Assembly (NCBI GenBank): GCA_041320695.1
Contig: JBGGOQ010000002.1
Span: forward strand, 21,618 to 85,617
Length of the DNA: 64,000 bases
Direction of reading: 5' to 3'
From: Caldicellulosiruptoraceae bacterium PP1
GTDB lineage: Bacteria > Bacillota > Thermoanaerobacteria > Caldicellulosiruptorales > Caldicellulosiruptoraceae
The notes below the pieces were generated by a model. It made no database searches, was not told where the DNA came from, and saw only the letters and a list, made by a program, of their open reading frames with translations. Shown piece by piece: positions 20,367-49,413 of the stretch; the first letter of the stretch is position 1, and each line of letters begins with the position of its first letter. Position numbers and translations under genes: made by a program.

Positions 20367-20398
20367 ATGTCTATAAATGTTTAAAAGGGGGACAGAGT

Positions 20399-22315: not shown

Positions 22316-22329
22316 ATCGGGGTGATTAT

Positions 22330-22827
22330 ATGTTTGATATGAATGAAGGCAACATAGAAAATATTGAAGATACCCAAAAAGATAAGTACCTGACTTTTTG
22401 TCTTGATAATGAAACATTTGGAATTGAGATAAGATTTGTATCAGAAATTATTAGCCTTCAGCCAATTACACCAATACCTGATGTTTCTTTGTATATAAAA
22501 GGTGTTATAAACTTGCGAGGCAAGATTATACCTGTTATTGATGTTCGTTTGAGATTTAACAAACAAGCAATTGAATATAATGATAGAACATGTATTATTG
22601 TTATTAATATTAAAGATATCTTTGTAGGCCTTATTGTTGATACTGTGTCTGAGGTATTAACTATACCACCACAGGATATAATTCAACCACATCAATATGG
22701 AAATTTAGCACATAGCAAATTTATTAAGTTTATTGGTAAAGTAGGCGATAATGTAAAGCTAATAGTCGATTGCGAAAAATTAGTAAATAATGAACTGGAG
22801 GAGATGCAAAATGAAGTGGTTCAATAA
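22330..22827 (+). CDS. cheW: chemotaxis coupling protein CheW
   Basis: 165 aa single CheW domain (…[19 protein letters not shown]…). Confidence 0.9.
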
Positions 22828-33519: not shown

Positions 33520-33558
33520 AAAAAAAGCAACAAATTATGTATTTTGTTGCTTTTTTAT
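33520..33558. terminator. terminator-like hairpin that overlaps the left inverted repeat
   Basis: AAAAAAAGCAACAAA ttatgtat TTTGTTGCTTTTTT. Confidence 0.45.
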
Positions 33559-33565
33559 TTTTCGA
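33529..33565. repeat. left copy of a 37-bp perfect inverted repeat (AACAAATTATGTATTTTGTTGCTTTTTTATTTTTCGA)
   Basis: Identical 37 nt occur in inverted orientation at 34422-34458. The match runs 10 nt beyond the hairpin on one side only, so it is not just a self-complementary terminator. Confidence 0.6.
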
Positions 33566-33735
33566 CAAATAATAACACATATATACCACATTTTTCATCA
33601 TTTTTCAACATATTTTTTAATTTATAAATTAATGCCCTTTTTTATAAAAAGATAATCAAAATTGCTAATATTAATTTTTGAAATAAAAATAACCTATAAC
33701 ATAAATTCTAAAATTTATTATTTATGTTCGTATGC

Positions 33736-34305
33736 TTAAAATTGTACTAGAGAATAAATTTCATCCTTTTGGTCTTGATTTACTCCAATATATCTTAAAG
33801 TTATACTCTGAGAGCTATGATTAAAAGTATCCATTATTAAACCTATGTTATATTTAGATATTTTATATGTCCAATACCCCCATGTTTTTCTCAAACTATG
33901 AGTACCAAAATTTTCTATACCAACAATTTGTGAGGCTTCCTTCATAACTTTATAAGCTTGTATGCGACCAATGTGACCACCTTTTTGACTAAAAAATAAA
34001 TAACTATCATAAGTTAAATTTTGTTTTTCTATGTATGTTTTTATAGCATCACGAAGAACATTATTAAGCTTTATTTTCTTTTCTTTTTTCGTCTTTTTTT
34101 CTTTAACTATAAGATAATTATAAAACTCTCCTTTTTCATTTAGTATATCAGAAACTTTTAGTGGTAAGATATCACTTATTCTTAATCCAGTATTAAGCCC
34201 AAATTTTAAAAGCAAAGCATATTTAGGATCTTTTTCATTTAAATAATTGTACATCTGCTTTATTTTACTTTTGTCTCTTATTGGCTCAACTGTCACTTTA
34301 ACCAT
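33736..34305 (-). CDS. small tyrosine-type site-specific recombinase (FimB/FimE/RecV-sized, catalytic domain only)
   Basis: 189 aa. Catalytic tetrad candidates R (GLRISD), K, H-x-x-R (HSLRKT) and the Tyr nucleophile (LRYIG). The in-frame GTG at 34296, about 9 nt after AGGAG, may be the true start. The ATG at 34305 abuts that SD. Confidence 0.75.
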   Translation of the reverse strand: MVKVTVEPIRDKSKIKQMYNYLNEKDPKYALLLKFGLNTGLRISDILPLKVSDILNEKGEFYNYLIVKEKKTKKEKKIKLNNVLRDAIKTYIEKQNLTYDSYLFFSQKGGHIGRIQAYKVMKEASQIVGIENFGTHSLRKTWGYWTYKISKYNIGLIMDTFNHSSQSITLRYIGVNQDQKDEIYSLVQF

Positions 34306-34421: not shown

Positions 34422-34458
34422 TCGAAAAATAAAAAAGCAACAAAATACATAATTTGTT
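34422..34458. repeat. right copy (inverted) of the 37-bp repeat
   Basis: TCGAAAAATAAAAAAGCAACAAAATACATAATTTGTT is the reverse complement of 33529-33565. Confidence 0.6.
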
Positions 34459-34562
34459 TCATTTCTTATATTGATAAAAAATATTATTTCGCATAGTTTT
34501 ATTAAAACAAAGATAATTAACCTTGTTATGCCATACCAAAATAATAACAACACTTTATATGT

Positions 34563-34685
34563 CGAAAAAGGCAAACCTATCGAAAGATAGGGACGCAAAG
34601 CTATGGGTCTAAGGGATTTATATTGGTATATTAAGAGTTATTTTTAAACTTAATTTACCTATGATTGCCAGGCTGCCGAAACATA
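34563..34685 (+). ncRNA. c-di-GMP-I (GEMM) riboswitch aptamer
   Basis: GGCAAACC UAUC GAAA GAUAGG GACGCAAAGC UAUGGGUCUAAGG ... CCAGGCUGCCGAAA matches the GEMM P1/P2 core known from the Vc2 riboswitch (GGCAAACC...CGAAAG...GGGACGCAAAGCC...GGCCUAAACC). It includes a 6-bp GAAA-tetraloop helix. Confidence 0.65.
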
Positions 34686-34736
34686 TGCAATACTAGACAA
34701 ATAATAAATAGTTTTGTATATGTTTTTACATATTAA

Positions 34737-34770
34737 TAGGCACAATGGCAGTTATTGTGCCTATTTTATT
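34737..34770 (+). terminator. riboswitch expression-platform terminator
   Basis: TAGGCACAAT ggcagtt ATTGTGCCTA followed by TTTTATT, about 20 nt before the RBS GGAGG and the ATG at 34792. Confidence 0.6.
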
Positions 34771-34791
34771 AAAATTATGGAGGAATGATTT

Positions 34792-36687
34792 ATGGAGAAA
34801 AAGTTAATTGAACCCAAAAAAATATCAAGTAGACCAAGCAGTACAACAAAGAATGTAGACAATAAGATTAAAAGCAAAACATTGGTAAGGCAGCAACAGC
34901 TATCCGAAAGGTTAGCAGCTGCAGCAGCACAACTTATGGCAGGAATTGAAGAATCTACGGCTGCTGTTGAACAGCTAAATAAAAGTGCAGAACAATTAGC
35001 AGCATCAGCAGAGGAATCATCTGCAGCAGTTGAGGAATCAAAAGCAGCAACAGAAGAAATTAAAAAATCATCAGCTGTTGCTTTAAGAAATTCAGTTGCA
35101 TTAAATGATAGGGCTAAAAACCTAAGTGTTGCTGTAAACGAAACCTCAAAAAGAATTCAAGAGTTAATTGAGGATATTAAGTTATCAGCTAAGAAGAAGC
35201 AAGTTTTAGCGAATATGGTTCATGAACTTGATGCATATTCTAATGAAATAGCCAATATTGTTTCAAATGTTGCAAAGATTGCTGACCAAATAAATTTGCT
35301 TGCATTAAATGCTGCTATTGAAGCTGCAAGAGCTGGTGAACACGGTAGAGGTTTTGCTGTTGTTGCTGACGAGGTAAGAAATCTTGCTGAAGTTGCAGAA
35401 AAATTAGCAAATAATGTAAAGTATATTGTTGAACAAGTAAACAATGGTATAAAAAATGTTGTTGATAAGATTCAACAATCAGTAAAATATGAAGATGAAC
35501 AAGCAAATATTGGTGATGATATATTAAATAATCTAATTAGAAATACACAATCGTTTGAAATTGTTTTAGAAAGGACATCAGATATACATTTAACTTCACA
35601 AAAAACATCTGATGCAATGAATGAATTTTTAAAACTTGTGGAAAATATAGCAACTGCTTCAGAACAAATTGCATCATCAGCAGTCGAAATAAGTAAATCA
35701 ACTGCAGAACAAGTTACAGCTTATAATGAAGCTAATAGTAGAACAAATGAACTTAATGAATTGGCTGAAGACCTCAGAAACTCAACAGATGCTGAAAAAG
35801 ATGCAAGTAAAATTGCTTTATTAGCTGATGAACTTTCTTCTGCTATTGAAGAGATATCCTCATCGTTAGATCAGATTCATGAAGCTTTAAGACAAATTGA
35901 AACAGCTTCAAAAATTGAATCAGAACATGCAGAAGAAGGGCGTGAGGAGATTAGCAAGATAGTCAATGATTCTCAAAAGCAAAGACAAATAGTAAACGAG
36001 TTAGACCAGGTGATAAATAAATTCTCAATTGATTTAAATGAAATTACTAATACAAGCTTTAAATTGATTGAGAATATAACTGAAACACTGCAAATAAACC
36101 ACGAGATAATTAACTTAATGAAAGATATTGAAAAAAATTCACGAAATTTAGAAAAAATTATTGAATCAATAGCATCAGTAACCGTCCAAACAAATATGTT
36201 AGCAGTGAATGGTTCTATTGAAGCAGCAAGAGCTGGAGAATTTGGGAGAGGGTTTTCTGTAGTTGCAACAGATATAAGAACTTTAGCGGGTGAATCTACA
36301 GAAAATGCAGATAATATGAAAGATATTGTAAGAAACGTTCAAAACCAAATAACAAAAATAATAACAGATATCGACAATGCTGTAAATACAACTACATTAT
36401 CAATTGAAAAATCAAAAAAGGATATCTACCAAATGAAAGATACTCTAAAATTAGTTGATGAAATGAAAAAGGCTTCAGATGAGATTAACGTTGAAATTGA
36501 GCAGGTTTTAACAGCAATTGAACAACTTCAGAAAGGCTTTGAAAATATTAGTTCTGCTGCCCAAGAAAATCTATCAGCAGTTACAGAAGCAACTAATGCA
36601 GCTTTAGAACAAAAACGTGGAGCAGATGATTTAATTGCAGCAGTGCAAGATATTTCAAGCTTAGCAGAAGAGATTGAAACAATGTAA
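34792..36687 (+). CDS. soluble (no TM) methyl-accepting chemotaxis-like protein with two MA signalling domains
   Basis: Two copies of the conserved MCP signalling core: [32 protein letters not shown] (about aa 170-200) and [34 protein letters not shown] (about aa 465-500). No hydrophobic segment. Confidence 0.85.
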
Positions 36688-36695
36688 GAAGGGAC

Positions 36696-38123
36696 TTGGT
36701 AGATATGAACAAAGATAAAGATAAGAACAATATGATAGTTAGCTTCAAATTAGGGCAACAGACAATAGGTATATCTATAAATAATGTTAAGGAAATAATT
36801 AGAGTTCCAGAGATTACGCCAGTTCCTTTAACAGTTTCTTACTTTGCTGGACTAATTAATTTACGTGGAGACATTATTCCTGTTATTGACCTAAAAGAAA
36901 AATATAAAATTGATTCCATTGGAGCAACTGAGGATAGAAGAATTATAGTTATAGAAGAAAATATGAAAAAATTTGGTATTATTGTTGATAAAGTTCTTGA
37001 TATTACCGAATATGATGAAGAAGATATTGATAAGAAAAAAATAGGAAGTTACGAAGAAATTGAGGCAATAATTAAACAAGAGTCAAAGCATAGAATTGTA
37101 GTTCTTATTGATATTGCAAAGGTTGTTTCTGAGAATATTATTTTATTTAATTATTCAAACAAAAAAGAGTCAAAAACACAGCATTCAAAAGAGCTGAAAA
37201 ATAATATATCTGAATCTGAAAGCCGATTTATACTTTTTGAAATATGTGAGCAAAATTATGCATTAGAAATAGAAAAAATAAAAGAAATAATGCGATATAC
37301 TGAACTGTCAGAGATACCAGATAATGAAAACAATATTGATGGCGTTATAAATCTTAGAGGTGAGGTAATACCAATTATAAATTTATCTAAAATAATCGGA
37401 TTACAAAATATACCAATAACTGATGCAACAAGAATAATTATTTTGATGGAGAGCGATTATAAAGTTGGATTCATTGTTGATAAAGTAAATGCTGTTCTAT
37501 CAGTAGCTAAAAGTGATATTAAAGAGCCTAGTTTTTTAATAAGCAGTAAAGAAATTATTAAAAATATAATTAATGCTAAAGATTGCTTAGCTATGGTTTT
37601 GAACACAAGCAAGATTTTATCGGGATTCGAGGAAAAAATTAGAAGTGATTATAACACAGGAGATGAATTTATTGGTATGGATTCAAAAAATGATGAAATG
37701 CAAGTAGTAATATTTGAGACTGATAATCAACTTATGGCTTTAAACATTACTGATGTTAAAGAAATAAATAAAGTTCCAAACATTGTTCCACTACCACAAG
37801 AAAGAGAATATATTAAAGGGATTGCTAACCTAAGAGGCGAAATTATTCCAATTTTTGATCTTGATAAATTATTCTATCAAACACAAACAACAATTAATGA
37901 TTCGTCAAGAATAATAATAGTTGAAATAGGAAATAAAAAATATGGAATAATAGCAAAAAAAGTTCTTAGCGTTTCAAGTTTTGGAGATAAAGATATAATT
38001 GAACTGGACAATGAAGAAAACCAAATAAATGTTGATATTGAAAAAAGATATATAAAGTCAGTTCTTAAAAAAGATGAACAGGTTGTTATTGTATTAAATA
38101 CATCTTCGATAATTCATCAATAA
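36696..38123 (+). CDS. triple-CheW-domain coupling protein
   Basis: Three CheW-like repeats end in GLINLRGDIIPVIDL, GVINLRGEVIPIINL and GIANLRGEIIPIFDL. Confidence 0.85.
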   Translation: MVDMNKDKDKNNMIVSFKLGQQTIGISINNVKEIIRVPEITPVPLTVSYFAGLINLRGDIIPVIDLKEKYKIDSIGATEDRRIIVIEENMKKFGIIVDKVLDITEYDEEDIDKKKIGSYEEIEAIIKQESKHRIVVLIDIAKVVSENIILFNYSNKKESKTQHSKELKNNISESESRFILFEICEQNYALEIEKIKEIMRYTELSEIPDNENNIDGVINLRGEVIPIINLSKIIGLQNIPITDATRIIILMESDYKVGFIVDKVNAVLSVAKSDIKEPSFLISSKEIIKNIINAKDCLAMVLNTSKILSGFEEKIRSDYNTGDEFIGMDSKNDEMQVVIFETDNQLMALNITDVKEINKVPNIVPLPQEREYIKGIANLRGEIIPIFDLDKLFYQTQTTINDSSRIIIVEIGNKKYGIIAKKVLSVSSFGDKDIIELDNEENQINVDIEKRYIKSVLKKDEQVVIVLNTSSIIHQ

Positions 38124-38138
38124 GGTGGTAACTTAATA

Positions 38139-39191
38139 ATGATAAATGTTTTAGTAGTAGATGATTCAGCTTTTATGAGAAAAAAAATCAAGGAAATGAT
38201 TGAAAGTGACAGGCAACTAAAAGTTATTGATACAGCAAGAGATGGAATTGAAGCAATTGAAAAAGCTGAAAAATTAAAACCAGATGTAATTACATTAGAT
38301 GTTAATATGCCTAATATGGATGGACTTAAAGCATTAGAAATAATAGTAAATAAAAGAATAGCACCAGTTATTATGTTATCATCATTAACCTATGATGGAG
38401 CTAAAACCACCTTTGAAGCTCTCGATTTAGGAGCATATGATTTTGTTGCAAAGCCTAGTGGAACAATTTCTTTGGATATTGAAAAGGTAAAAGATGAATT
38501 AATTGAAAAAATAAAACTTGCTTATAATGCTGATGAAAATAAAAAATATTTAGTTAGAAAAGATAGAACAAATATTAAAAAAATTGCTGGGGTCATTAAG
38601 CATGATGCATTTAAAGCTGTTGCAATAGGAATATCTACTGGTGGGCCTAAAACAATTATGGATGTCATTCCATATTTACCACGAAATTTAAATGCTGCAA
38701 TATTTCTGGTTCAACATATGCCACCTAATTTTACTACACAATATGCAAATAGGCTAAATGATTCATCTGATATTACTGTTGTTGAGGCAAGTGCAGGTAT
38801 GACTGTTGAAAAAGGAGTATGTTATGTAGGGAAAGGTGGATATCACCTGACCCTACATAAGTCTATTGATGAAAAAATTAGAATTAGACTTACACAAAGT
38901 CCTAAACATCAGTTTATGCCCTCGGTAAGCGTTATGATGAATTCTGTATTAAATATTTTTGGTGCTAATACCATAGGTGTTTTGATGACTGGCATGGGAG
39001 ATGATGGTGCTGATATGATGGTAAAAACAAAAGAAATAGGTGGAGTTACAATCGCTGAATCTCAAGAAACAGCAGTTGTTTTTGGAATGCCAAAAGAAGC
39101 AATTAAAAGAGGTGGAGCAGATTTTATAATACCATCTTATGAGATAGCTGAAAAAATAATAGAATTAGTAGGATTGTTTGAGGAGGAGTAA
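38139..39191 (+). CDS. cheB: chemotaxis methylesterase CheB (receiver + CheB_methylest)
   Basis: N-terminal receiver (VLVVDDSAFMRK...D) and a C-terminal methylesterase with catalytic Ser-His-Asp region (GISTGGP...HMPPNFT...GMGDDGA). Confidence 0.9.
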   Translation: MINVLVVDDSAFMRKKIKEMIESDRQLKVIDTARDGIEAIEKAEKLKPDVITLDVNMPNMDGLKALEIIVNKRIAPVIMLSSLTYDGAKTTFEALDLGAYDFVAKPSGTISLDIEKVKDELIEKIKLAYNADENKKYLVRKDRTNIKKIAGVIKHDAFKAVAIGISTGGPKTIMDVIPYLPRNLNAAIFLVQHMPPNFTTQYANRLNDSSDITVVEASAGMTVEKGVCYVGKGGYHLTLHKSIDEKIRIRLTQSPKHQFMPSVSVMMNSVLNIFGANTIGVLMTGMGDDGADMMVKTKEIGGVTIAESQETAVVFGMPKEAIKRGGADFIIPSYEIAEKIIELVGLFEEE

Positions 39192-39193
39192 GA

Positions 39194-39553
39194 ATGAAAG
39201 TAATGATTGTAGATGATTCACCTATGATTCATAAATTATTAAAAAAAGAAATAGAGAAAAATGGACACCAAGTTGTTTTTATAGCTTCAAATGGTAAAGA
39301 AGCTGTAGAAAATTACATGAACGTTAAGCCTGATATAGTATTTATGGATCTAACAATGCCAGTTATGGAGGGTGACCAGGCATATAAAGAAATAAATAAA
39401 ATTGATAGTAACTGTAAATTTGTTTTTTTAACTGCTCTGGGTGATAATAAAGAATTATTTGAGAATGATAAAAATATCATAAGGATCATAAAAAAACCAT
39501 TTAAACCAGATGAAATAAAAGAAATACTTATGGTGGTAGGTGCTATGTCATGA
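39194..39553 (+). CDS. CheY-like single-domain response regulator
   Basis: 119 aa receiver (KVMIVDDSPMIH...DLTMPVMEG...K). Confidence 0.9.
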   Translation: MKVMIVDDSPMIHKLLKKEIEKNGHQVVFIASNGKEAVENYMNVKPDIVFMDLTMPVMEGDQAYKEINKIDSNCKFVFLTALGDNKELFENDKNIIRIIKKPFKPDEIKEILMVVGAMS

Positions 39554-40026
39554 CTGATTTAATAAATATGCAAATATCAGAAAGCTGCGATAAAGTTGTT
39601 TTGGATGTTTTTACGCAGATGACAGATATTGAACCAGAAAGAGTAAATTATCGAGAAAATAATCTCAATGAAATAGAATATGATGGCATAATCTCAATAG
39701 TAAGTTTTACTGGAGAAAAAAGAGGAAGAATTATTCTTGGTATTCAAAAGATATTAGCTGATTATATCACTTTACAGGTATATGGGAAATCTAATCCAAC
39801 AAATGATGAAGTCCTTGAGGTGATATCAGAACTAAATAACATAGTATCAGGAAATATAGCATCAGAATACAAAAAAATATCTGGGATAATAATGAAGGTT
39901 ACACCCCCATCTATTTTTTTCGGGAAGAGAATTATTGTTTCAACAGCACAAATTACAAATAGCAGGTATGATTATTTAACTTTATATGGCTCCTTTTTTC
40001 TTAATGTAGGATTTGAAAGGGGATAA
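39550..40026 (+). CDS. CheC/CheX/FliY-family phosphatase-like protein
   Basis: 158 aa with an E-x-x-N motif (SELNNIVSGN) as in CheC/CheX CheY-P phosphatases. Overlaps cheY by 4 nt. Confidence 0.6.
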   Translation: MTDLINMQISESCDKVVLDVFTQMTDIEPERVNYRENNLNEIEYDGIISIVSFTGEKRGRIILGIQKILADYITLQVYGKSNPTNDEVLEVISELNNIVSGNIASEYKKISGIIMKVTPPSIFFGKRIIVSTAQITNSRYDYLTLYGSFFLNVGFERG

Positions 40027-40032
40027 AAGCAG

Positions 40033-40494
40033 ATGGCTGAAGAAATATTTAACTCTTTTGATAAGGCATTAAAAAATATATTAGGGCAATTTAACATGTT
40101 ATATGTAAATATAAATAGCTCATGTGATTTACAAAATATAGAAAGTAAAACACCAATAAATATAATATTAGGGCTATTAGGAGATTTAAGGGGTAGTGTT
40201 ATTATTGGTATGGATAATAAATTGGGCAATAAATTAGTAGAAAATATTAGTGACGGTTTTATGAATGATATAAACTCAGAGATGGCAAGAAGTGCTTTAT
40301 CAGAACTTGGAAATATGATAACTGCATATGCAAGCACAAATCTATTTTCATATGGATATAAAACAGATATCACTACTCCTACATTGGTTGTAGGAGAAGA
40401 CTTGACTGCAATTGTATGTAGAACTCAATCCAAAATGATGACTTATGTAACTGAACATGGAAATGTTCAAATGGTTATTGGGTTATGGCAATAA
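40033..40494 (+). CDS. CheC-like protein (second CheC/CheX-family member)
   Basis: 153 aa with an E-x-x-N motif (LSELGNMITAYAS). Confidence 0.6.
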   Translation: MAEEIFNSFDKALKNILGQFNMLYVNINSSCDLQNIESKTPINIILGLLGDLRGSVIIGMDNKLGNKLVENISDGFMNDINSEMARSALSELGNMITAYASTNLFSYGYKTDITTPTLVVGEDLTAIVCRTQSKMMTYVTEHGNVQMVIGLWQ

Positions 40495-40510
40495 GGAGCA
40501 TTATTTATAT

Positions 40511-41335
40511 ATGAAAAAAGAATTAGAAAGTATTTATTATAGAGAGATTAGAAGAATTATTGAAAATGAGTGTGGGATATATTTGTCCGAAGACAAAGAT
40601 AATCATGTCAAGATGAGATTAAACAAAAGGATGAATGAACTGTCAATACCGGATATTTACCATTATTTTAATTATTTAAAACAAGATAAGAAAGAAATTC
40701 AAAAACTTATTAATGAAATAACAGTAAACGAAACTTATTTTTTTAGAGAATTCGATCAGCTTAAAGTTTTTGGTGAAATATGTTTATTAGAGATAGCACA
40801 AGAAAAGAACCAAAATACAAGAAAAATAAGGATTTGGTCTGCAGGGTGTTCTACTGGAGAAGAACCATATTCATTGGCTATTATTGCAAAAGAGATTCTT
40901 GGAGATGAATTTGAAGTTGAAATCTTAGCTAGTGATATTGATCAAAATGTGTTGAATAAAGCAAAAATGGGTATATATGACAAAAGGTCAGTAAGGTATC
41001 TTCCAGATGAATATTTAAACAAATATTTTATTAAAGTAGAAGAAGGCTACAAAATTAACAATGAAATCAAAAAAATGGTAAAATTCTTTCATCATAACTT
41101 GATTAAATATGATGAATATAGTCTATTTAATAATGTGGATTTTATTTTTTGTCGAAATGTATTGATTTATTTTTCAGATGAGAATAAAGCTAAAGTTGTT
41201 CAAGGATTTTATAATGTTCTAAATAATGGAGGATATATTTTTCTTGGACATTCTGAGTCTGTAGGTAGATTATCTAATTTATTCAAGTTGGAAAGAAAAG
41301 ATGGATATATAGTCTATAGGAAACCTCATATATGA
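40511..41335 (+). CDS. cheR: chemotaxis protein methyltransferase CheR
   Basis: SAM-dependent methyltransferase motifs (IWSAGCSTGEEPYSLA...DIDQNVL...FCRNVLIYF). The ATG at 40511 follows AAGGAG. The ORF track extends to 40457 and overlaps the previous gene. Confidence 0.85.
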   Translation: MKKELESIYYREIRRIIENECGIYLSEDKDNHVKMRLNKRMNELSIPDIYHYFNYLKQDKKEIQKLINEITVNETYFFREFDQLKVFGEICLLEIAQEKNQNTRKIRIWSAGCSTGEEPYSLAIIAKEILGDEFEVEILASDIDQNVLNKAKMGIYDKRSVRYLPDEYLNKYFIKVEEGYKINNEIKKMVKFFHHNLIKYDEYSLFNNVDFIFCRNVLIYFSDENKAKVVQGFYNVLNNGGYIFLGHSESVGRLSNLFKLERKDGYIVYRKPHI

Positions 41336-41351
41336 ATGAGAGGTGTTATAA

Positions 41352-43166
41352 TTGAAAATAACTGTTTTAAAGACTGAATTTGATATTTTGGTTGATTTTA
41401 TTAATGAATCTAAAGAACATTTGGAGAATATCGACTCACTCATATTAAAAATAGAAGAAACACTTAATATTGATGACATTAATGAATTGTTTAGAAAAAT
41501 TCATACAATAAAAGGTTTATCTGGTTTTTTAGAAGGACTTGTTGATGTTACTGTCTTATGTCAAATTGTAGAAGAGGTTTTGGATAAATTAAGGAAAAAC
41601 AATATAAAAGTATCATCTGAGATAATAGAATATTTGCTTAAAAATGTAGATATTATCAAAAAGGTAATGTATAAATTAGAGGAAGGTCTTAATAAAGGTG
41701 AAGATATCAATTTTGAGATTGACTTTGATTTATCGTGGTCTTCAAGTCAGAAAGATATGTTAATTAAATCAAATTTATCTGAGAATGAAATTTCAGAAAA
41801 TAGCTTAGACAATAATACTAAGATTGAGAATGAATTAGATAAAAATCAAGAAGAGAATAGAAACTTAAATGTTGATGATGAATATAATAAAAACAATACT
41901 TCAAACAATGATAAATCAGAAAATAAAATTGAGTCAATTGATAATAACAGTACAATAAAAAATGAATATATTAATGAGGACATAAAAATCAGTTATCAAA
42001 AAATAGACAAATTATTAGGGTTAATAGGTGAAATTGTTTCTACCAAAAACTCTTTTTCATATTTACTAAAGGAAATAGAGATAAATAAAAACAATGAGGC
42101 TGTAAAAAAACTTTCAAACCAAATAAAATTTATACATCGTACAGCAGATGAGATTCATGCTGAAATTATGAATATGAGAATGATACCATTAAGCGGTATC
42201 TTAAAAAAATATAATAGAATTGTTCGTGATTTGGCACAAAAAATGGGTAAAAAAGTTGCTCTTAATATAGATTGCGGTGATGTAGTAATTGATAGAAATA
42301 TTGTTGAAAGATTAAATGACCCATTAATACATTTAATACGAAATAGTATAGACCATGGGATTGAAAAGCCAAAAGATAGGAAAAAATATGGGAAAGATGA
42401 AAAGGGAAATATTATAATAAAAGCAAATAATAGAGGAAGATATATTGAAATAAGTATATCAGATGATGGAAAAGGAATAGATACAAAAAAGATATTAAAG
42501 AAGGCAATAGAAAAAGGAATAGTAAGCAAGGAACAGGCTAAATCAATGAATGATAATGATATTATTAATTTAATTTTTTATCCTGGAATGTCAACAGCTG
42601 AAGTAGTAACAGATATATCTGGTCGTGGTGTGGGGATGGATGTTGTAAAATCAACCATAGAAAGGTTAAAAGGTGAAATAGAAGTAAATTCTGAAAAGAA
42701 CATAGGAACTGAATTTAAATTAAAAATACCTTTATCTGCTGCATTAACACAAGGTGTTTTAGTTTCATTTGAGGGAATAAATTATATTATACCTATGGAC
42801 TATGTGGAAGAAACTATAAAGATAAATAAAGACAAAATTGAGTATCTGATTGATAGAGCAGCAGTTAATATTAGAGGCGAGGTAATACCAATAGTTCCAC
42901 TATCCTATGCCCTTTATTATAAAGATAAGTTACCAATTAATTATATTGATGAAATAATGGGTAATGAATCTTTATTACCTATTTTAATTGTTAAAATAAG
43001 AAATGAAAAAGTAGGTATTGCAGTTAATTCACTAATTAGAAATGAAGAATTTGTATTAAAACCATTACCAACTGCTATAGCAAACAACAAAATAGCTTTG
43101 GGAGCCAATATTGATGTTGAAGGTAATGTAGTAATAGTATTAAACCCTGAATATTTTAATTTATAA
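41352..43166 (+). CDS. cheA: chemotaxis histidine kinase CheA (second copy), with an Asn/Asp-rich low-complexity linker
   Basis: Hpt (IHTIKGLSGFL), HATPase_c (DDGKGID...GRGVGMD) and a C-terminal CheW-like domain. TTG start 6 nt after GAGAGGTG. Confidence 0.9.
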   Translation: MKITVLKTEFDILVDFINESKEHLENIDSLILKIEETLNIDDINELFRKIHTIKGLSGFLEGLVDVTVLCQIVEEVLDKLRKNNIKVSSEIIEYLLKNVDIIKKVMYKLEEGLNKGEDINFEIDFDLSWSSSQKDMLIKSNLSENEISENSLDNNTKIENELDKNQEENRNLNVDDEYNKNNTSNNDKSENKIESIDNNSTIKNEYINEDIKISYQKIDKLLGLIGEIVSTKNSFSYLLKEIEINKNNEAVKKLSNQIKFIHRTADEIHAEIMNMRMIPLSGILKKYNRIVRDLAQKMGKKVALNIDCGDVVIDRNIVERLNDPLIHLIRNSIDHGIEKPKDRKKYGKDEKGNIIIKANNRGRYIEISISDDGKGIDTKKILKKAIEKGIVSKEQAKSMNDNDIINLIFYPGMSTAEVVTDISGRGVGMDVVKSTIERLKGEIEVNSEKNIGTEFKLKIPLSAALTQGVLVSFEGINYIIPMDYVEETIKINKDKIEYLIDRAAVNIRGEVIPIVPLSYALYYKDKLPINYIDEIMGNESLLPILIVKIRNEKVGIAVNSLIRNEEFVLKPLPTAIANNKIALGANIDVEGNVVIVLNPEYFNL

Positions 43167-43217
43167 ATAATTGAGAATATATTATATTAATTTTTTGATA
43201 TTAAATTTTAGAAAGTT

Positions 43218-45068
43218 ATGAAGGTTGATATTTATATGGATAATATTTTTGAAAAGTTAAGAAGTAAAAATATTATTGATAAGAATTTTCTGTATTTTGT
43301 AATACCTATATTAATTATAATTGCCATATTTTCTGTATTAATTGTTTCAAATATCTTCTTCAAACAGGTTGAACTTCAAAGGAAGGCTGAATTAAAACAG
43401 AAGGTTGAAATTGCTTATAATACAATTTTGCCAATAATAACAATGAAGAGAGAAAACAAGATTTCTAAAGAAGAAGCAATAAAAAGGATTACAGATATTG
43501 TAAGAAATATGACTTTTAATGATGAATTTTCAAAAAACTATATATTTATGAGCTCATATGATGGAACATATTTGGTACAGCCTTTTGAACCAGAAAAAGA
43601 AGGAACAAATCAATGGAATTATGTAGATATAAAAGGTAAATATATAATAAGAGAGCTTGTTAAAGCAGCAAAAAAGTATCCGCAAGGTTCTTATGTTTCA
43701 TATTATTCATATTTACCGCATTCAAAAGAATATCAACCAAAGTTATCATATGTAAAAGGTATTCCAGAGATTGAAGCATATATTGGAACAGGTATGTATA
43801 CCCAAACAACTTTTAAGAATTTGTATACCCTATTAAATATTCAGCGTCTTATTTTGATATTATCATTTTTGTTTGTTATTATGTTTATACTTATTTATAC
43901 ACAAAACCTAAATAAAAACTATCTTTTATTAAAGAACGAAATAATAAGAAGAAAACAATTAGAAGAGGAGTTAATAAAAGAAAAAAATGATTTAATAAAT
44001 TATCAAAAACAATTAGATTATATAGCCATTCATGATTTATTAACTGGTTTATATAATTATAATTATTTTACTTCTTTAATTTCTTCTTTTCCACAAAATG
44101 AAAGTTTACCATTAAGTATTATTATGTTTGATGTTAATGGTCTTAAATTAATAAATGATACTATGGGACACACCTATGGAGATAAGTTATTAGTGTCGTT
44201 TGCAAAAATATTACTATCTTCAAAAAGAAAAAATGATATAGCAATAAGAATTGGCGGAGATGAGTTTTTATTAATTTTACCTAATACTAATCATAAAAAA
44301 GCAGAGGAAATAACAGATACAATTAAAAGGAATATTGAAAAATATAACAATAATCTTAAAGAAAAACTCCTTGTTTTAAGTGTAGCAACTGGATTTGCTA
44401 CATTAGAAAATAATAATCAAAATTTGTTTGAGATTTATAAACAAGCTGATGACAATATGTATAAGGATAAGCTACTTAATAAATTAAGCTCAAAAAATCA
44501 GATAATTAGTGTTTTGTTAGCTGCTTTGGGAGAAAAAGATAATGTAACCAAAGGACACACTGATAGGGTTAAAAAAATGTGTGAATTAATGGCCCAAAAA
44601 TTAGATTTAGATGATACTCAAAAAAATAATTTAATTTTACTTTCTGAGATGCATGACATTGGTAAAGTGGCAATACCTGATTCAATATTAAACAAAAAGG
44701 AGCCATTAACAAAAAGAGAATGGGAAATCATAAAAAGTCATTCAGAAAAAGGTTATAGAATTGCTTTGGCTTCTCCAGAGTTAGGATCTATAGCTGAACT
44801 AATTTTAAAACATCATGAAAAATGGGATGGGACAGGCTATCCTCTTGGAATAAAAGGGGAAGAGATACCAATTGAGTGTAGAATATTAGCTTTAGCAGAT
44901 GCGTACGATGCTATGACAAATCTACGGCCATATAATAAGGTTAAAACTCATGAAGAGGCTATTAGAGAAATAAAATATTGTTCAGGTACACAATTTGATC
45001 CTAAAATAGCTGAAATATTTATTGAATTATTTGAACCTTATCATAGTAATTCGACCAGATTGAATTGA
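43218..45068 (+). CDS. membrane sensor diguanylate cyclase/phosphodiesterase (periplasmic Cache-like domain + GGDEF + HD-GYP)
   Basis: 2 TM (about aa 25-46 and 205-226) flank an extracytoplasmic domain. GGDEF motif IRIGGDEFLL. HD-GYP domain HDIGKVAIP ... HHEKWDGTGYPLG. Confidence 0.85.
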   Translation: MKVDIYMDNIFEKLRSKNIIDKNFLYFVIPILIIIAIFSVLIVSNIFFKQVELQRKAELKQKVEIAYNTILPIITMKRENKISKEEAIKRITDIVRNMTFNDEFSKNYIFMSSYDGTYLVQPFEPEKEGTNQWNYVDIKGKYIIRELVKAAKKYPQGSYVSYYSYLPHSKEYQPKLSYVKGIPEIEAYIGTGMYTQTTFKNLYTLLNIQRLILILSFLFVIMFILIYTQNLNKNYLLLKNEIIRRKQLEEELIKEKNDLINYQKQLDYIAIHDLLTGLYNYNYFTSLISSFPQNESLPLSIIMFDVNGLKLINDTMGHTYGDKLLVSFAKILLSSKRKNDIAIRIGGDEFLLILPNTNHKKAEEITDTIKRNIEKYNNNLKEKLLVLSVATGFATLENNNQNLFEIYKQADDNMYKDKLLNKLSSKNQIISVLLAALGEKDNVTKGHTDRVKKMCELMAQKLDLDDTQKNNLILLSEMHDIGKVAIPDSILNKKEPLTKREWEIIKSHSEKGYRIALASPELGSIAELILKHHEKWDGTGYPLGIKGEEIPIECRILALADAYDAMTNLRPYNKVKTHEEAIREIKYCSGTQFDPKIAEIFIELFEPYHSNSTRLN

Positions 45069-45149
45069 AGCACAACAAGCCAATAAGTAGCTGAGATTTA
45101 AAAATGTATAAGTGATTTGAGATATAAATAAGATATATCCTTCAATTTT

Positions 45150-45245
45150 AATATTAAAAATTGAAAAAGGCAAACTCGTCGAAAGACTGAGACGCAAAGC
45201 CACAGGCCTAAGGTATATATATGCTATGATGGCTGGATTGTCAAT
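45150..45245 (+). ncRNA. second c-di-GMP-I (GEMM) riboswitch aptamer
   Basis: GAAAAAGGCAAACUCGUCGAAAGACUGAGACGCAAAGCCACAGGCCUAAGG ... GGCUGG. About 75% identical to the aptamer at 34563 over the conserved core. Confidence 0.55.
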
Positions 45246-45329
45246 TGATATTTATAGATAAGGGCTAATAAAGAAGATTTAGGTAAAAAACAACCTCTAT
45301 ACTAAGTCTTACTTATAATAAGTTTAAAA

Positions 45330-45362
45330 CGGGCAACTCACATATTGCCTGTTTTTTTTATT
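45330..45362 (+). terminator. expression-platform terminator of riboswitch 2
   Basis: CGGGCAA ctcacata TTGCCTG followed by TTTTTTTTATT, 20 nt before the RBS GGGGGAAAA and the ATG at 45382. Confidence 0.6.
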
Positions 45363-45381
45363 AATACATGGGGGAAAATTC

Positions 45382-45561
45382 ATGAGGTTAGCACTATTAA
45401 ATGATAAAGTTATTGGTAAAAAATTAGGAATGCCTATTTTTTCATCAGAAGGAATAATAATTTTAAGCCAAGGAACTGTTTTAACTGAAAGAATTATCGA
45501 AAGATTGAGACAAATAGGTGTGGGAACAGTATATATAGATAATGAAACTTTGAAGAAGTGA
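45382..45561 (+). CDS. 59-aa ORF resembling the N-terminal regulatory domain found at the start of HD-GYP phosphodiesterases (orphan or truncated)
   Basis: MRLALLNDKVIGKKLGMPIFSSEGIIILSQGTVLTERIIERLRQIGVGTVYIDNETLKK*. The pattern (hydrophobic-G-x-x-L-x-x-D-I, G-x-L-L, G-T-x-L-T-x-x-I, L-x-x-x-G-I-x-x-V-Y-I) is typical of HD-GYP N-terminal domains. It ends in TGATGATAA, is below the ORF-track size cutoff, and has an RBS. Confidence 0.4.
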   Translation: MRLALLNDKVIGKKLGMPIFSSEGIIILSQGTVLTERIIERLRQIGVGTVYIDNETLKK

Positions 45562-45897
45562 TGATAAAGGAAATTTTGAATTCTTCATTTCGATTAAGGA
45601 CAATTAAGACTTTGCAGCAGTTATTTGAAAAGATCAAAAAGAAAAAAGAACTTGAATCTTTTTGATGCACATAATTATCGTTGACATTCTTAAAATGATT
45701 TATATTAGCTAAAACAATGCTTAAAGACTGCATTAGAGATATAGAATTGTATTATATTGCATTCACTGTAACAACTAAGAAAGTATTAAAAAATTAAATA
45801 AAGATAATTTATTATATCTATATTTATAAGTTTTCTGCTATAATAAATAATAGCAATATTTACATAATTTATTATTATTGTATTGGAGTCTGATAGC

Positions 45898-48800
45898 ATG
45901 AGTTTAAGATTTATTTATGGAAGAGCTGGATGTGGTAAGACACATTTTTGCCTTAATTCAATAAAAGATGATATAGATAATTTAGAACAAAGGCTTCATA
46001 TATTATTAGTACCTGAACAGTTTACATTGCAAGCAGAAAGAGAACTTATATCTGTTTTGAAAAATAAAGGAATAATTAAAACAGAGGTTTTAAGTTTTAG
46101 AAGGCTTACATATAGAATTTTAAATAATGTTGGTAGGGCTAATTTAAAAAATTTAGATTCTGCATCAAAAAATATAATAATATACGATATATTAAAAAAC
46201 CTAAAGGATAAATTAAATATTTTCTCTAATATTGCTTCAAAACAAGGATTTGTTGAAGAGGTTTCAGAACTAATTTCTGAGTTTAAGAGGAGCAACATCT
46301 CCTTAGATATATTAATGGATATCTTGGAAAAAGTTAAAGATGATAAAACATTATACAATAAACTTAATGATTTTTATTTAATATATAATGAGTACCAAAA
46401 AGAGATTAATAATAAATATCATGATTCAGAGGATATAATTACTTTAGCATTATCAAAGCTTGATGATTTATCCATTTATAATGAAGCTGAGATTTGGATA
46501 GACGGATTTTCATATTTTACACCTCAAGAATATAGAATAATTGAACAACTTCTTAAAAAAGCAAAAAGGGTAAATATTACTCTTTGCATTGATAGCTTAG
46601 AAGAAAATCCAACAACAAATTTTGATATCTTTCAAGGGACAAGAAAGATATATAAAAAAATAACTAAAATAGCACAGGGAAATAATATAGAGATTGAAGA
46701 TGCAGTAAATTTAAATAGTGAAGTGTTATATAGATTTAAAGATAGTCCTGAAATTGCCCACCTTGAAAAAAACCTTTACTCATATCCTTATGAAATATAT
46801 GAAAAAACAACAACAGATATCACCTTATTTACATCTAAAAATATGTATGCTGAAGTGGAAGATACTGCTCGAGAAATAATAAGCCTTGTAAGAGACAAAG
46901 AATATAGATTTAAGGACATTGCTATAATTACAGGAAATTTATCAGAATACCAAGCACTTATTGAAAATACATTTGGCAAATACAATATACCATATTTTAT
47001 TGACAGAAGGATTGATATAATAACACATCCAATAGTACGGCTAATTATGTCTGTCTTAGATATTTTTATTGAAAACTGGTCATATGAATCAGTTTTTGGA
47101 TATCTTAAAACTGGTCTTACAGGAATTTCTCAAGCAAGAATTGACATTTTAGAAAACTATGTTCTTGAGCACGGTATAAGAGGAAACCTGTGGACAAGTA
47201 ATAAAGAATGGGATATGACAGCAAGCTTTGATTTTGACGATATAGAAGAAACGCAAGGTGATGTTAGTGATGAAGGCAAGCAACCAAATAAGAGTAAATT
47301 CCTTGAACATATAAATAAAATAAAAAATGATGTTTCATCTCCTTTATTAAGGCTTATGGATAATCTAAATAATAGCAAAAATATGGCTGATTTTATTAAA
47401 AGTATCTATGATTTCTTATGTGATATTAAATTGCCAAAAAGAATCAAAAACTATGTTAGACTTTTTGAAAAGAACAATAATATTGAATTAGCAAACCAGT
47501 TTGTTCAGGTATGGAATATTGTTGTAAATGTATTTGACCAAATTGTAGAGATATTAGGTGATGATAAGTATACTATTAAAGAATGTTCAGATATTTTAGA
47601 ATTGTGTTTTAAGGAATATAACATAGGTGCAATTCCAGCATTTAATGACCAAGTTTTGATTGGAACATTTGAAAGGTCAAAAAGCCATGAAGTTAAAGCA
47701 CTGTTTATATTAGGTGCTAATGATGGTGCAATACCTTCAACCAGCACAAATAAAGATTTGTTGATAGAAAAGGATAGAAGAAAGCTTTCTGAAATTGGAT
47801 ATGATCTTATTAACAACACAAAGATAAACTCAATAGAAGAACAGTTTTTAATTTATAAGACTTTTACTACTGCAAATAAAATCATAAGGATAAGCTTTCC
47901 CATAGCAGACTTAGAAGGGAATACCTTAAGGCCATCTACTATATTATCAAGAATTAAAAGCTGTTTTAAAAATATAAGTGAGAAAAGTGATATTGTACCT
48001 ATTATTGACAAGCAAAAAGAGATAGAACTAATTTCGACAGCTATTCCTACTTTTAGTAATATGGTTTTATCATTAAGAGGTTTTATTGATGACAAAGAAA
48101 TTAGCTCTTTATGGTACGATGTATACAAATGGTTTTATTCTAAAGAAGAATGGCATAATAAATGCCAAAGGATAATAGAAATGTTTAAATATAAGAATAT
48201 AATACCACCGATTAGTACAGAAAAGATGCATAAATTGTTAATTAATAGAGGAAACAAAGATAATAGAATTGTTTTTAGTATATCAAAATTAGAAAGTTAT
48301 TCTGCATGTCCTTTTGCATTTTTTGTCCAATATATTTTAAAAGCTAAAGAGCGAAAGATATTTAATTTAAATCCGATAGATATAGGTAATTTTGCTCATA
48401 AAGTAATTGAAACAGTATCAATAGATATTTATAAAAATGAAAATAATAAATGGAACAACATTGATATGGAAAAGAGTAAAGAAAAAGTTAATATAGCTAT
48501 AAATAAACTTCTTAGTCAAATGGAAAGATCTTCTATACTAAATTCAACAATGTATAGAACATATATTAATAGATTTACAAAGGTTTTAGAAAGGTCTGTA
48601 TATACAATAGCAAAACAGATTAGTGCAGGAGAATTTCTTCCAGATGAATTTGAGGTAGTTTTTGATGAAAAAGGGAAATATCATCAAATTGAAATTGAGA
48701 TAGAAAAAGACAAAAAAGTCTATCTAACAGGCAGAATTGACAGAATTGATATATTTAAAGAAAATAATAAAATTCATTTTAGAATTATAGATTATAAAAC

Positions 48801-49413
48801 AGGGAAAAAATCTTTCAGTTTACTCGAACTATATTATGGACTACAAATACAGCTTATAACTTATCTAATTGCAATATGGGATAGATTCTCAAAGAATAAA
48901 AATATTATAATAAATCCAGCAGGTATGTTTTATTTTACAATCAATGACCCAATTATTAGATTAGATAAAATGGAGCCTATTGAAGAAATTGAAAAAGAAA
49001 AGCAAAAAGAATTGAAATTAAATGGTTTGATGATAGATGATATTAAGATTTTAAAAGCTATGGACTGCGAGCTTGAGGAAAATAAATATTCTTTTGTTAT
49101 TCCGGTAAGCATTAAAAAAGATAATACATTTACAAAAAATTCAAGTGTTATTAGCATTGAAGATTTCAAAAAACTCAAAATATATATAAGCAACCTTATA
49201 AAAAGCTTATGCAATAATATTTTACAAGGTAATGTAAATATAATGCCTTATAAATACAAAAGTAATACACCTTGTGAATATTGCAAATTTTCGTCTGTAT
49301 GCCAGTTTGATAATAGTAGTGGCAACTCATATAGAAACCTTACTAATAAAAAAGATGATGAGTTATGGCAAATTATAAGAGGAAGTGAAGAAAATGAGCA
49401 AATGGACCAATGA
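45898..49413 (+). CDS. addB: ATP-dependent helicase/deoxyribonuclease subunit B (AddB/RexB)
   Basis: N-terminal Walker A GRAGCGKT and a C-terminal nuclease domain with Fe-S cluster cysteines (CPFAFF...PCEYCKFSSVC). About 1171 aa from the ATG at 45898 (MSLRFIYG). The ORF track begins 15 nt earlier at a TTG. Confidence 0.85.
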   Translation: MSLRFIYGRAGCGKTHFCLNSIKDDIDNLEQRLHILLVPEQFTLQAERELISVLKNKGIIKTEVLSFRRLTYRILNNVGRANLKNLDSASKNIIIYDILKNLKDKLNIFSNIASKQGFVEEVSELISEFKRSNISLDILMDILEKVKDDKTLYNKLNDFYLIYNEYQKEINNKYHDSEDIITLALSKLDDLSIYNEAEIWIDGFSYFTPQEYRIIEQLLKKAKRVNITLCIDSLEENPTTNFDIFQGTRKIYKKITKIAQGNNIEIEDAVNLNSEVLYRFKDSPEIAHLEKNLYSYPYEIYEKTTTDITLFTSKNMYAEVEDTAREIISLVRDKEYRFKDIAIITGNLSEYQALIENTFGKYNIPYFIDRRIDIITHPIVRLIMSVLDIFIENWSYESVFGYLKTGLTGISQARIDILENYVLEHGIRGNLWTSNKEWDMTASFDFDDIEETQGDVSDEGKQPNKSKFLEHINKIKNDVSSPLLRLMDNLNNSKNMADFIKSIYDFLCDIKLPKRIKNYVRLFEKNNNIELANQFVQVWNIVVNVFDQIVEILGDDKYTIKECSDILELCFKEYNIGAIPAFNDQVLIGTFERSKSHEVKALFILGANDGAIPSTSTNKDLLIEKDRRKLSEIGYDLINNTKINSIEEQFLIYKTFTTANKIIRISFPIADLEGNTLRPSTILSRIKSCFKNISEKSDIVPIIDKQKEIELISTAIPTFSNMVLSLRGFIDDKEISSLWYDVYKWFYSKEEWHNKCQRIIEMFKYKNIIPPISTEKMHKLLINRGNKDNRIVFSISKLESYSACPFAFFVQYILKAKERKIFNLNPIDIGNFAHKVIETVSIDIYKNENNKWNNIDMEKSKEKVNIAINKLLSQMERSSILNSTMYRTYINRFTKVLERSVYTIAKQISAGEFLPDEFEVVFDEKGKYHQIEIEIEKDKKVYLTGRIDRIDIFKENNKIHFRIIDYKTGKKSFSLLELYYGLQIQLITYLIAIWDRFSKNKNIIINPAGMFYFTINDPIIRLDKMEPIEEIEKEKQKELKLNGLMIDDIKILKAMDCELEENKYSFVIPVSIKKDNTFTKNSSVISIEDFKKLKIYISNLIKSLCNNILQGNVNIMPYKYKSNTPCEYCKFSSVCQFDNSSGNSYRNLTNKKDDELWQIIRGSEENEQMDQ

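Follow-up and report, generated by a model that had tools for sequence, protein, structure and literature searches.

A probable F9-class chemosensory operon with a c-di-GMP riboswitch leader and a putative phase-variation cassette in Caldicellulosiruptoraceae bacterium PP1

A stretch of 64,000 nucleotides from Caldicellulosiruptoraceae bacterium PP1 (GenBank assembly GCA_041320695.1, contig JBGGOQ010000002.1, positions 21,618 to 85,617 of the forward strand; hereafter the window) contains a chemosensory gene cluster that is preceded by a riboswitch for cyclic dimeric guanosine monophosphate (c-di-GMP) and a recombinase cassette, and that ends in a gene for a c-di-GMP enzyme (Table 1). Nine closely spaced plus-strand open reading frames (ORFs), from 34792 to 45068, were found at the coordinates given in a first-pass annotation made from the sequence alone. 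That annotation had described a packed cluster encoding a methyl-accepting chemotaxis protein (MCP), a triple CheW, CheB, CheY, two CheX-type proteins, CheR, CheA and a Cache-GGDEF-HD-GYP protein, and had suggested Pfam domain calls on each protein as a check. These were run and returned the domains as described, with NCBIfam assignments in agreement for the operon proteins. The cluster is packed, as had been stated; of the several 4-nt overlaps mentioned, only one is a true 4-nt overlap, that between cheY and cheX. A separate canonical cheY-cheA-cheW-MCP cluster, also noted in the first pass, was located at 20010-24778; its CheA (20399-22315) bears a P2 domain, and beside this canonical pathway the nine-gene unit makes up another complete one.

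Table 1. Features of the chemosensory locus and its flanks (positions within the window; aa, amino acids)
Feature	Position	Strand	Basis and remarks
Left (recombinase-distal) inverted repeat	33520..33565	.	core GCAACAAA-TTATGTA-TTTGTTGC, itself a hairpin, then a T-run
Candidate outward promoter, recombinase-distal end	33569..33605	-	TTGAAA-17-TATATA, or ATGAAA-18-TATTAT with TG; then GTCGAAAAA
Tyrosine recombinase (REC), 189 aa, inside cassette	33736..34305	-	Pfam Phage_integrase, 5.8e-25
Right (che-proximal) inverted repeat	34422..34467	.	ends 94 nt before the riboswitch
c-di-GMP-I aptamer 1, leader of the che operon	34561..34681	+	Rfam clan match, RF03167, 71.9 bits
Intrinsic terminator of leader 1	34737..34775	+	AATAGGCACAAT-GGCAG..-ATTGTGCCTATTTTATT; hairpin -15.9 kcal/mol
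DosM-type MCP, 631 aa	34792..36687	+	Pfam: MCPsignal x2, no other domain
CheW3, 475 aa	36696..38123	+	Pfam: CheW x3, 4.7e-89
CheB methylesterase with receiver domain	38139..39191	+	Pfam, NCBIfam
Single-domain CheY, 119 aa, receiver only	39194..39553	+	Pfam
CheX-like protein a (CheX/CheC family)	39550..40026	+	Pfam; E-x2-N motif kept (SELNN)
CheX-like protein b (CheX/CheC family)	40033..40494	+	Pfam; S-x3-E-x2-N kept (SALSELGN)
CheR methyltransferase	40457..41335	+	Pfam
CheA (Hpt, H-kinase_dim, HATPase_c, CheW)	41352..43166	+	Pfam
Membrane sCache_2-GGDEF-HD-GYP protein, 616 aa	43218..45068	+	Pfam: sCache_2, GGDEF, HD_5
c-di-GMP-I aptamer 2	45159..45245	+	Rfam RF01051, 66.5 bits; 84 bits with own model
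Intrinsic terminator of leader 2	45326..45358	+	terminator prediction (45326-45355)
59-aa ORF and 35-aa ORF in another frame	45382..45665	+	N-terminal remnant of an HD-GYP-type protein, ends before addB

Pfam detected neither a sensor nor a HAMP domain in the MCP, and no hydrophobic transmembrane stretch was apparent on reading its sequence, in which two conserved signalling hairpin tips can be made out. All three CheW regions of CheW3 aligned across 22 homologues, and the CheW of Caldicellulosiruptoraceae bacterium PP1 matches the protein at 100% identity. CheY has the residues D7, D8, D52, T80 and K102, with Ile at the position of the aromatic switch residue (Y106, E. coli numbering). Both CheX-like proteins carry the active-site E-x2-N motif followed about 22 residues on by a Pro (SELNN...TPP and SALSELGN...TTP), and the alignment of CheX-like protein b with Borrelia CheX (3HZH_B) spans the phosphatase motif. 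The start of cheR is probably the ATG at 40512, which lies after an AAGGAG site. CheA showed neither a P2 nor a receiver (Response_reg) domain in Pfam. For the GGDEF-HD-GYP gene an alternative start exists at 43236, and the NCBI product has 610 amino acids; depending on the start, 51-69 nt of AT-rich sequence devoid of hairpins separate it from cheA.

The receptor and the triple CheW are those of the F9 class of chemosensory systems. F9 systems occur in ~2% of surveyed bacteria and form double-layered cytoplasmic arrays, and the combination of DosM (double signalling domain receptor) with a concatenated CheW3 is an architecture unique to them, the two proteins being their signature components (PMC9321776, PMC7534058); the triple-CheW architecture (CheW.III) has also been tied to F9 elsewhere (bioRxiv 10.1101/2022.05.07.491037). 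In Vibrio cholerae the F9 array is purely cytoplasmic, with DosM spanning two CheA/CheW3 baseplates (PMC9321776, PMC7534058). V. cholerae F9 mutants had no chemotaxis phenotype (PMC7534058), deletion of cheA gave no phenotype, and according to reviews the physiological effect of F9 'remains to be discovered' (PMC9321776, PMC7534058). Because a soluble, two-tip MCP and a triple CheW are both present in the window, the former free of a sensor domain and both in one cluster with dedicated cheA, cheY, cheB and cheR genes, we read the locus as a complete F9-class operon of the order dosM-cheW3-cheB-cheY-cheX-cheX-cheR-cheA, the class being called by its signature proteins. We consider it probable, with a fair margin for error, that this reading holds as a whole, that is, an F9 operon together with an OFF riboswitch, an appended enzyme that closes a regulatory loop and a probable phase-variation cassette.

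The first-pass annotation had instead labelled the pathway Wsp-like and assigned it to the alternative cellular function (ACF) systems. This label was given up, as the F9 signature proteins are there and every Wsp-defining feature examined is missing. The operon contains no receiver-GGDEF protein of the WspR type; its only GGDEF protein has just sCache_2, GGDEF and HD_5 domains in Pfam, which agrees with the earlier remark that the cyclase lacks a receiver domain, and the 119-aa CheY is the one stand-alone receiver protein. A CheA-receiver hybrid of the WspE type is likewise absent, since Pfam found no Response_reg domain in CheA, and no membrane receptor of the WspA type was found, the MCP being soluble by Pfam and by reading of its sequence.

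A genome-wide scan anchored on CheW3 yielded 76 loci, and the survey set, made up of the scan loci, loci fetched earlier and the window, held 50 distinct triple-CheW loci (individual loci are cited below by L numbers). An MCP2-CheW3-CheB core recurred across these 50 loci, with a DosM-type MCP detected in the same locus in 45 of them. They come chiefly from Bacillota, with a few from Deferribacterales, deltaproteobacterial and planctomycete genomes. Caldicellulosiruptor bescii and a Thermovenabulum genome share the exact gene order of the window, whereas most other Firmicute F9 loci encode Hpt proteins, additional receivers, an ATPase resembling ParA and another protein with several CheW domains instead. 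In a Paenibacillus-type F9 locus (L003, 17759-20222), cheA is followed by a gene for a ParA/MinD-like ATPase and then by one for a 567-aa protein with three CheW domains; the window operon is without the ParA/MinD-like ATPase gene and the second three-CheW gene of loci of this type.

The presence of a c-di-GMP riboswitch in the operon leader, claimed in the first pass, was confirmed by an Rfam match above threshold. The scan was made at the gathering (curated) threshold, and a lower-scoring match of the same clan to aptamer 1 was suppressed. A c-di-GMP-I model of our own (R1), built from other loci and from aptamer 2, scored aptamer 1 at 80 bits. The aptamer has an insertion of ~40 nt in its distal hairpin. 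The family with the reported match, RF03167, is that of the GGC-variant riboswitches with altered ligand; this identity was ruled out, as aptamer 1 keeps the canonical A at the variant-defining position. In the ACGC-A-AAGC segment that holds this position, which we take to be the ligand-contacting A47, aptamer 1 reads ACGCAAAGC, as RF01051 does, whereas the RF03167 consensus has a G (ACGCGAAGC). The higher RF03167 score stems from the outer helix and the insertion, not from the variant nucleotide, and aptamer 1 was treated as an ordinary c-di-GMP sensor.

Downstream of aptamer 1 the leader is predicted to form a 13-bp terminator hairpin with a U-tract, followed by a ribosome-binding site and the ATG of the MCP gene. 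Folding predicts an alternative duplex (-20 kcal/mol) between nucleotides 34661-34678, which form the 3' strand of the aptamer, and the 5' arm and loop of the terminator. This antiterminator is the minimum free energy structure until the 3' arm of the terminator has been transcribed, and the complete leader prefers aptamer plus terminator. As the antiterminator is predicted to be mutually exclusive with the terminator, ligand binding should favour termination, and leader 1 is predicted to be an OFF switch with the operon expressed at low c-di-GMP.

Similar leaders were found at other F9 loci. In L005, L011, L015, L024 and L025, c-di-GMP-I aptamers scoring 82-89 bits lie upstream of the F9 module and are each followed by a terminator; in the last four the terminator 5' arm UGGCAAC reads complementary to the aptamer 3' strand GUUGCCA. 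Riboswitch-led F9 operons thus number six in the 50 triple-CheW loci, window included. Scanning with R1 revealed no further riboswitches in the remaining F9 loci, and none was found by Rfam or R1 in the Paenibacillaceae loci that carry the recombinase cassette described below. Two other aptamers precede pairs of an ordinary single-domain cheW and an MCP gene: a c-di-GMP-I aptamer in [Anoxybacillus] calidus (L075, 9771-9863) and a weak match to R1 (29.9 bits) in an uncultured Clostridia genome (L064, 6670-6749). Literature searches found no paper that describes riboswitch control of F9 operons and nothing that links F9 or DosM to c-di-GMP. We regard c-di-GMP as a well-supported input to the expression of the window operon.

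The first pass had placed a c-di-GMP riboswitch at each end of the operon. Two aptamers are indeed present according to Rfam, but the second does not sit at a functional operon end, as it leads the remnant of an HD-GYP gene. In phmmer searches the 59-aa ORF behind it matched the N-termini of two HD_5 proteins (L055, 16149-17210, 1.4e-05; L059, 4958-6028, 0.0015). That this ORF might be the start of a surviving HD-GYP gene was ruled out by tblastn, which detected no HD-GYP coding sequence past it; the frame changes and non-coding DNA extends to addB. Aptamer 2 is, on this evidence, the leader of a decayed c-di-GMP phosphodiesterase gene and no second gate on the che operon. Leader 2, aptamer and terminator alike, appears intact and has outlived its truncated, frame-shifted gene. 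No terminator was predicted between the GGDEF-HD-GYP gene and aptamer 2, and read-through from the operon into aptamer 2 is therefore possible.

The enzyme encoded at the 3' end of the operon has intact motifs for both activities, namely RKND-x5-GGDEF (with the RxxD I-site five residues before GGDEF), the HD motif and HHEKWDGTGYP. No terminator was predicted between cheA and the enzyme gene, the next predicted one being that at 45326, and we infer that transcription of the operon most likely runs on through this last gene. The feedback loop on c-di-GMP proposed in the first pass accordingly retains its parts, a real riboswitch and an intact appended enzyme with no intervening terminator; the loop itself is only plausible. 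Genes for other c-di-GMP enzymes occur at related loci. In C. bescii, a genetically tractable species, a GGDEF-EAL gene lies directly upstream of the orthologous operon, and in Thermovenabulum one lies 14 nt past cheA. In an F9-type cluster of a Thermacetogeniaceae genome (L043, 18103-19149), a CheX fused to HD_5 is encoded right after cheA-cheX-cheY, and HD-GYP genes stand between the recombinase cassette and the MCP gene in L028 and L047. With several further F9 loci in which such genes abut the cluster, a c-di-GMP enzyme gene was present in 14 of the 50 triple-CheW loci, in four architectures of which the CheX-HD-GYP fusion is one.

Upstream of the riboswitch lies a cassette of 0.95 kb, bounded by 46-nt repeat arms that are 93% complementary and 856 nt apart. 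A non-palindromic spacer and a TCGAAAAAT tail are inverted between the arms, and the repeats are therefore true inverted repeats. Each resembles a full recombination site in which an asymmetric spacer of 7 nt separates the arms GCAACAAA and TTTGTTGC. The tyrosine recombinase between them keeps the catalytic R, K, H-x-x-R, H and Y (GLRISD, EKKT, GTHSLRKT, HSS and LRYIG) in common with eight full-length homologues. It is 73-75% identical to the recombinases of L010, L015 and L017, whereas the CheW3 proteins encoded beside these cassettes are just 31-33% identical; identity to the recombinase of the Paenibacillus locus L003 is 47%. This difference suggests a cassette that is mobile, or conserved, in its own right and not together with the operon behind it.

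The cassette was found upstream of the F9 module at 10 genome loci including the window, and the same repeat core recurs in the nine others, where related repeats enclose a gene for a homologous recombinase whose orientation is away from the che genes. The hosts include Paenibacillus naphthalenovorans, P. cisolokensis, Cohnella laeviribosi, Aneurinibacillus terranovensis, Gordoniibacillus kamchatkensis and Lutispora thermophila, as well as several metagenome-assembled genomes; in Lutispora the order of cassette, riboswitch and operon is as in the window. A metagenome scan anchored on the recombinase returned 10 close and 63 more distant relatives. All 10 close relatives are flanked by repeats with the same core; six are transcribed divergently from che operons, which for the most part are of the ordinary cheY-cheW-cheA-MCP kind, and one from an HD-GYP gene. 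Of the distant relatives 13 are repeat-flanked, and most are not linked to che genes. The closest metagenomic relatives, the cassettes of L081, L082, L086, L089 and L090 (65-75% identity), are divergent from non-F9 che operons, which are clearly of the cheY-cheW-cheA-MCP type in L081, L086 and L090. Judged by these neighbourhoods, the cassette family is one that tracks che operons in general, not F9 alone.

Promoter-like sequences point outward from the recombinase-distal end of several cassettes. In the F9-linked cassettes nearest to that of the window, those of L010 (6289-6378), L015 (6484-6560), L017 (6126-6232) and L088 (3002-3083), an outward SigH-like motif was found there, AGGA-N14-GTCGAAT (general form AGGA-N14-15-RnnGAAT; background 0.04 per kb), whose two boxes and their spacing agree with those of SigH promoters mapped in C. 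difficile (PMC7438776, Table 3). At this place a TATAAT is conserved among the cassettes of Paenibacillaceae. Genes past the distal repeat are mostly convergent among the cassette loci, and the idea of a toggle between the che operon and a far-side gene was dropped as a general model on that ground. In the window a gene for a 671-aa SPFH/Band 7 protein (30993-33008, minus strand) lies 515 nt past the left repeat, co-directional with the candidate outward promoter; this arrangement is not conserved in the other loci. In Clostridia, read-supported inversions near chemotaxis and c-di-GMP genes have been reported as uncharacterised elements (Sekulovic et al. 2018, PMC5903667), and this survey was the only work found in literature searches on invertible switches upstream of che operons. 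It lists loci; the cassette family, its link to F9 and the riboswitch are not described there. We regard the cassette as a likely phase-variation switch for the operon.

Several findings weigh against parts of this reading. The enzyme gene may have a promoter of its own, and promoter-like matches in the AT-rich DNA of the window are no commoner than in shuffled sequence. The enzyme has its closest homologues in Caloramator and Crassaminicella, where they are encoded outside che clusters; this ruled out the Cache-GGDEF-HD-GYP enzyme as a conserved F9 component. The 14 of 50 F9 loci with c-di-GMP enzyme genes (28%) compare with 7 of 28 non-F9 cheW loci (25%) from the same scan, and an enrichment of such genes near F9 was dropped as a claim; their tight abutment in F9 loci is the only hint left after this comparison, and is suggestive. 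The window cassette lacks an AGGA box and has generic sigma-A-like matches only, which makes its promoter a weak candidate. The stretch that separates the right repeat from aptamer 1, outside the cassette, holds further weak sigma-A-like matches (34488-34545), and inversion may therefore not be the sole or main control. Finally, a single orientation of the cassette was seen in all 16 informative assemblies.

Three other explanations were weighed. That with the best prospects, a possible but clearly less probable account, is that the F9 array feeds into flagellar motility as an accessory system, its CheY~P acting on the motor or the canonical array, with the riboswitch placing the operon in a c-di-GMP-repressed motility regulon and the enzyme an independent neighbour. 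A canonical che cluster within the same window and the predicted OFF polarity of leader 1 are in keeping with it. A precedent exists in Clostridioides difficile, whose flagellar flgB operon is preceded by a c-di-GMP-I riboswitch of the OFF type. F9 is moreover a flagellar-type class, with full flagellar gene sets in 97% of F9 species (PMC9321776), and CheX/CheC phosphatases are auxiliary proteins in several flagellar-class systems (bioRxiv 10.1101/2022.05.07.491037). On the other side, control of swimming has yet to be demonstrated for any F9 system (PMC7534058, PMC9321776), the window contains no flagellar genes, c-di-GMP enzyme genes recur right beside F9 clusters, and the CheA of the operon has no P2 domain.

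A rather doubtful alternative takes c-di-GMP turnover as the output of the F9 phosphorelay, with CheY~P acting on the GGDEF-HD-GYP enzyme directly or via CheX, in a manner Wsp-like in function and not homologous to Wsp. Four architectures of c-di-GMP enzyme abut or sit inside F9 clusters in separate lineages, and by a 'Rosetta stone' argument the CheX-HD-GYP fusion of L043 suggests an interaction of CheX with HD-GYP proteins. The missing chemotaxis phenotype of V. cholerae F9 mutants (PMC7534058) counts in favour of an output of this kind, as does the Ile in place of the aromatic switch residue, which among the F9 CheY proteins compared is confined to the two from Caldicellulosiruptoraceae. 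As evidence against motor binding, however, the Ile was rejected, since the CheY proteins of L005, L025 and L043 keep a Phe. Nor did CheX-HD-GYP fusions prove to be a widespread family: among the best matches of a search of 5.8 billion proteins only the L043 protein carries both domains. The enzyme itself has no receiver, CheW or CheX domain and possesses its own Cache sensor, its nearest homologues are not che-linked, and c-di-GMP neighbours are no more frequent than at other cheW loci. Both CheX proteins keep the phosphatase motif, consistent with ordinary signal termination, and a neighbouring c-di-GMP enzyme gene is lacking at four of the loci with a riboswitch (L011, L015, L024 and L025). 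A PP1 paralogue of the enzyme was looked for and not located. In our preferred view the appended enzyme serves to close a regulatory loop and is not the direct output of the phosphorelay.

That the cassette is an inert mobile-element remnant without regulatory role, a fixed promoter between 34467 and 34561 driving the operon, is improbable: the sigma-A-like matches outside the cassette, its uniform orientation and the hint of horizontal movement in its recombinase identities speak for it, but at 16 loci from different families the cassette precedes che operons in a constant position and orientation, its catalytic residues and full recombination-site-like repeats are intact, its mostly convergent distal neighbours leave the che side as the only consistent partner, neither target-site duplications nor other mobile-element genes accompany it, and read-level inversions beside che genes have been published for Clostridia (PMC5903667).

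Two further features of the window lie apart from the operon. A gene for a small Fic/DOC-family protein (25976-26437, minus strand) stands between the two che clusters. Downstream of addB/addA (45883-53137) there is an array of clustered regularly interspaced short palindromic repeats (CRISPR) with 29 repeats (RF01315, GTTTCAATCCCTTATAGGTAGGCTAAAAAC; 53703-55581), one degenerate repeat being at 54228.

Among described systems, the operon is most readily set beside cluster I of V. cholerae, an F9 system (DosM VC1403, triple CheW VC1402, CheA VC1397) to which it is likened here by published description only. Shared features are a sensor-less soluble receptor with two signalling domains, CheW3 and a dedicated CheA, CheY, CheB and CheR in one cluster, a canonical che system alongside, and conditional expression. 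Unlike cluster I, the window operon has two CheX phosphatases and no ParA-like gene or second CheW-domain gene; the riboswitch leader, the appended GGDEF-HD-GYP gene and the upstream recombinase cassette are features of the window not described for Vibrio. The Wsp system of Pseudomonas, an ACF system, resembles the operon in that a che-type module is found in genetic linkage with c-di-GMP metabolism. The membrane receptor of Wsp, its hybrid of CheA with a receiver and its receiver-GGDEF output have no equivalents in the window operon; conversely, the riboswitch, DosM and CheW3 of the window operon are missing from Wsp.

The regulatory region finds a close counterpart in the flgB leader of C. 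difficile, in which a c-di-GMP-I riboswitch with terminator (Cd1) and a tyrosine-recombinase element, the RecV-inverted flagellar switch, likewise stand in series before a single operon tied to behaviour (PMC5386303). In C. difficile the invertible element lies downstream of the riboswitch, in the 5' untranslated region, and the flagellar switch uses a recombinase encoded elsewhere, whereas in the window the element lies upstream and the cassette encodes its own recombinase (PMC5386303 for C. difficile). The genes controlled are those of a chemosensory array in the window and of flagella in C. difficile. A c-di-GMP-I riboswitch, Bc1, also precedes the single MCP gene mcpE in the Bacillus cereus group and shows little response to c-di-GMP in vivo (PMC11218506); the combination of such an aptamer with terminator(s) in the leader of a Firmicute chemoreceptor gene is common to both, while the window leader precedes a whole nine-gene unit. 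Self-contained invertase switches such as the hin H-segment of Salmonella, taken together with the inversion signatures near chemotaxis genes in the Clostridia survey (PMC5903667), share with the cassette inverted repeats around a recombinase gene and, probably, an outward promoter, and a place beside signalling or chemotaxis genes; Hin is a serine recombinase and the enzyme of the window cassette a tyrosine recombinase.

Under the preferred reading of an F9 operon with riboswitch, appended enzyme and cassette, and by analogy with V. cholerae cluster I, the operon products would assemble into a purely cytoplasmic array whose receptor, with its two tips, would connect one CheA/CheW3 baseplate to another. 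Signals would pass from the array through CheA to CheY~P, with both CheX phosphatases resetting the signal. With ligand bound, the aptamer would hold its own 3' strand and the terminator would form (OFF); in the ligand-free state this strand would pair with the 5' arm of the terminator and transcription would proceed (ON), so that the operon would belong to the low-c-di-GMP state. If the enzyme is co-transcribed, expression of the operon would feed back on the ligand of its own riboswitch, negatively where the enzyme is a net cyclase and positively where it is a net phosphodiesterase, and the sign may be set by an extracellular signal at the Cache domain. The cassette, ~95 nt upstream, would flip its outward promoter toward or away from the operon and thereby make expression phase-variable. 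In the simplest model the promoter is parked in the assembled orientation, and inversion would direct it into the riboswitch-che unit.

The interest of the locus lies mainly in the experimental handles that it offers on F9 function. With its relatives, it provides a regulatory context for F9 that the Vibrio model lacks, through a riboswitch with a defined ligand, c-di-GMP enzymes in the neighbourhood and a probable phase switch, and the question of when and why an F9 array is made becomes open to direct experiment. Chemosensory arrays would also join the flagella of C. difficile as a case in which a c-di-GMP riboswitch is paired with an invertible element. A broader and decidedly speculative proposal, which we think unlikely to hold in full, is that Firmicute F9 arrays form part of the c-di-GMP network, made in a subpopulation set by the invertase and only at low c-di-GMP, with CheY~P acting on c-di-GMP enzymes and not on the motor; as part of the same proposal, the invertible element of related genomes would drive transcription from a SigH-type stationary-phase promoter. 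If true, this would be the first physiological role for the F9 class.

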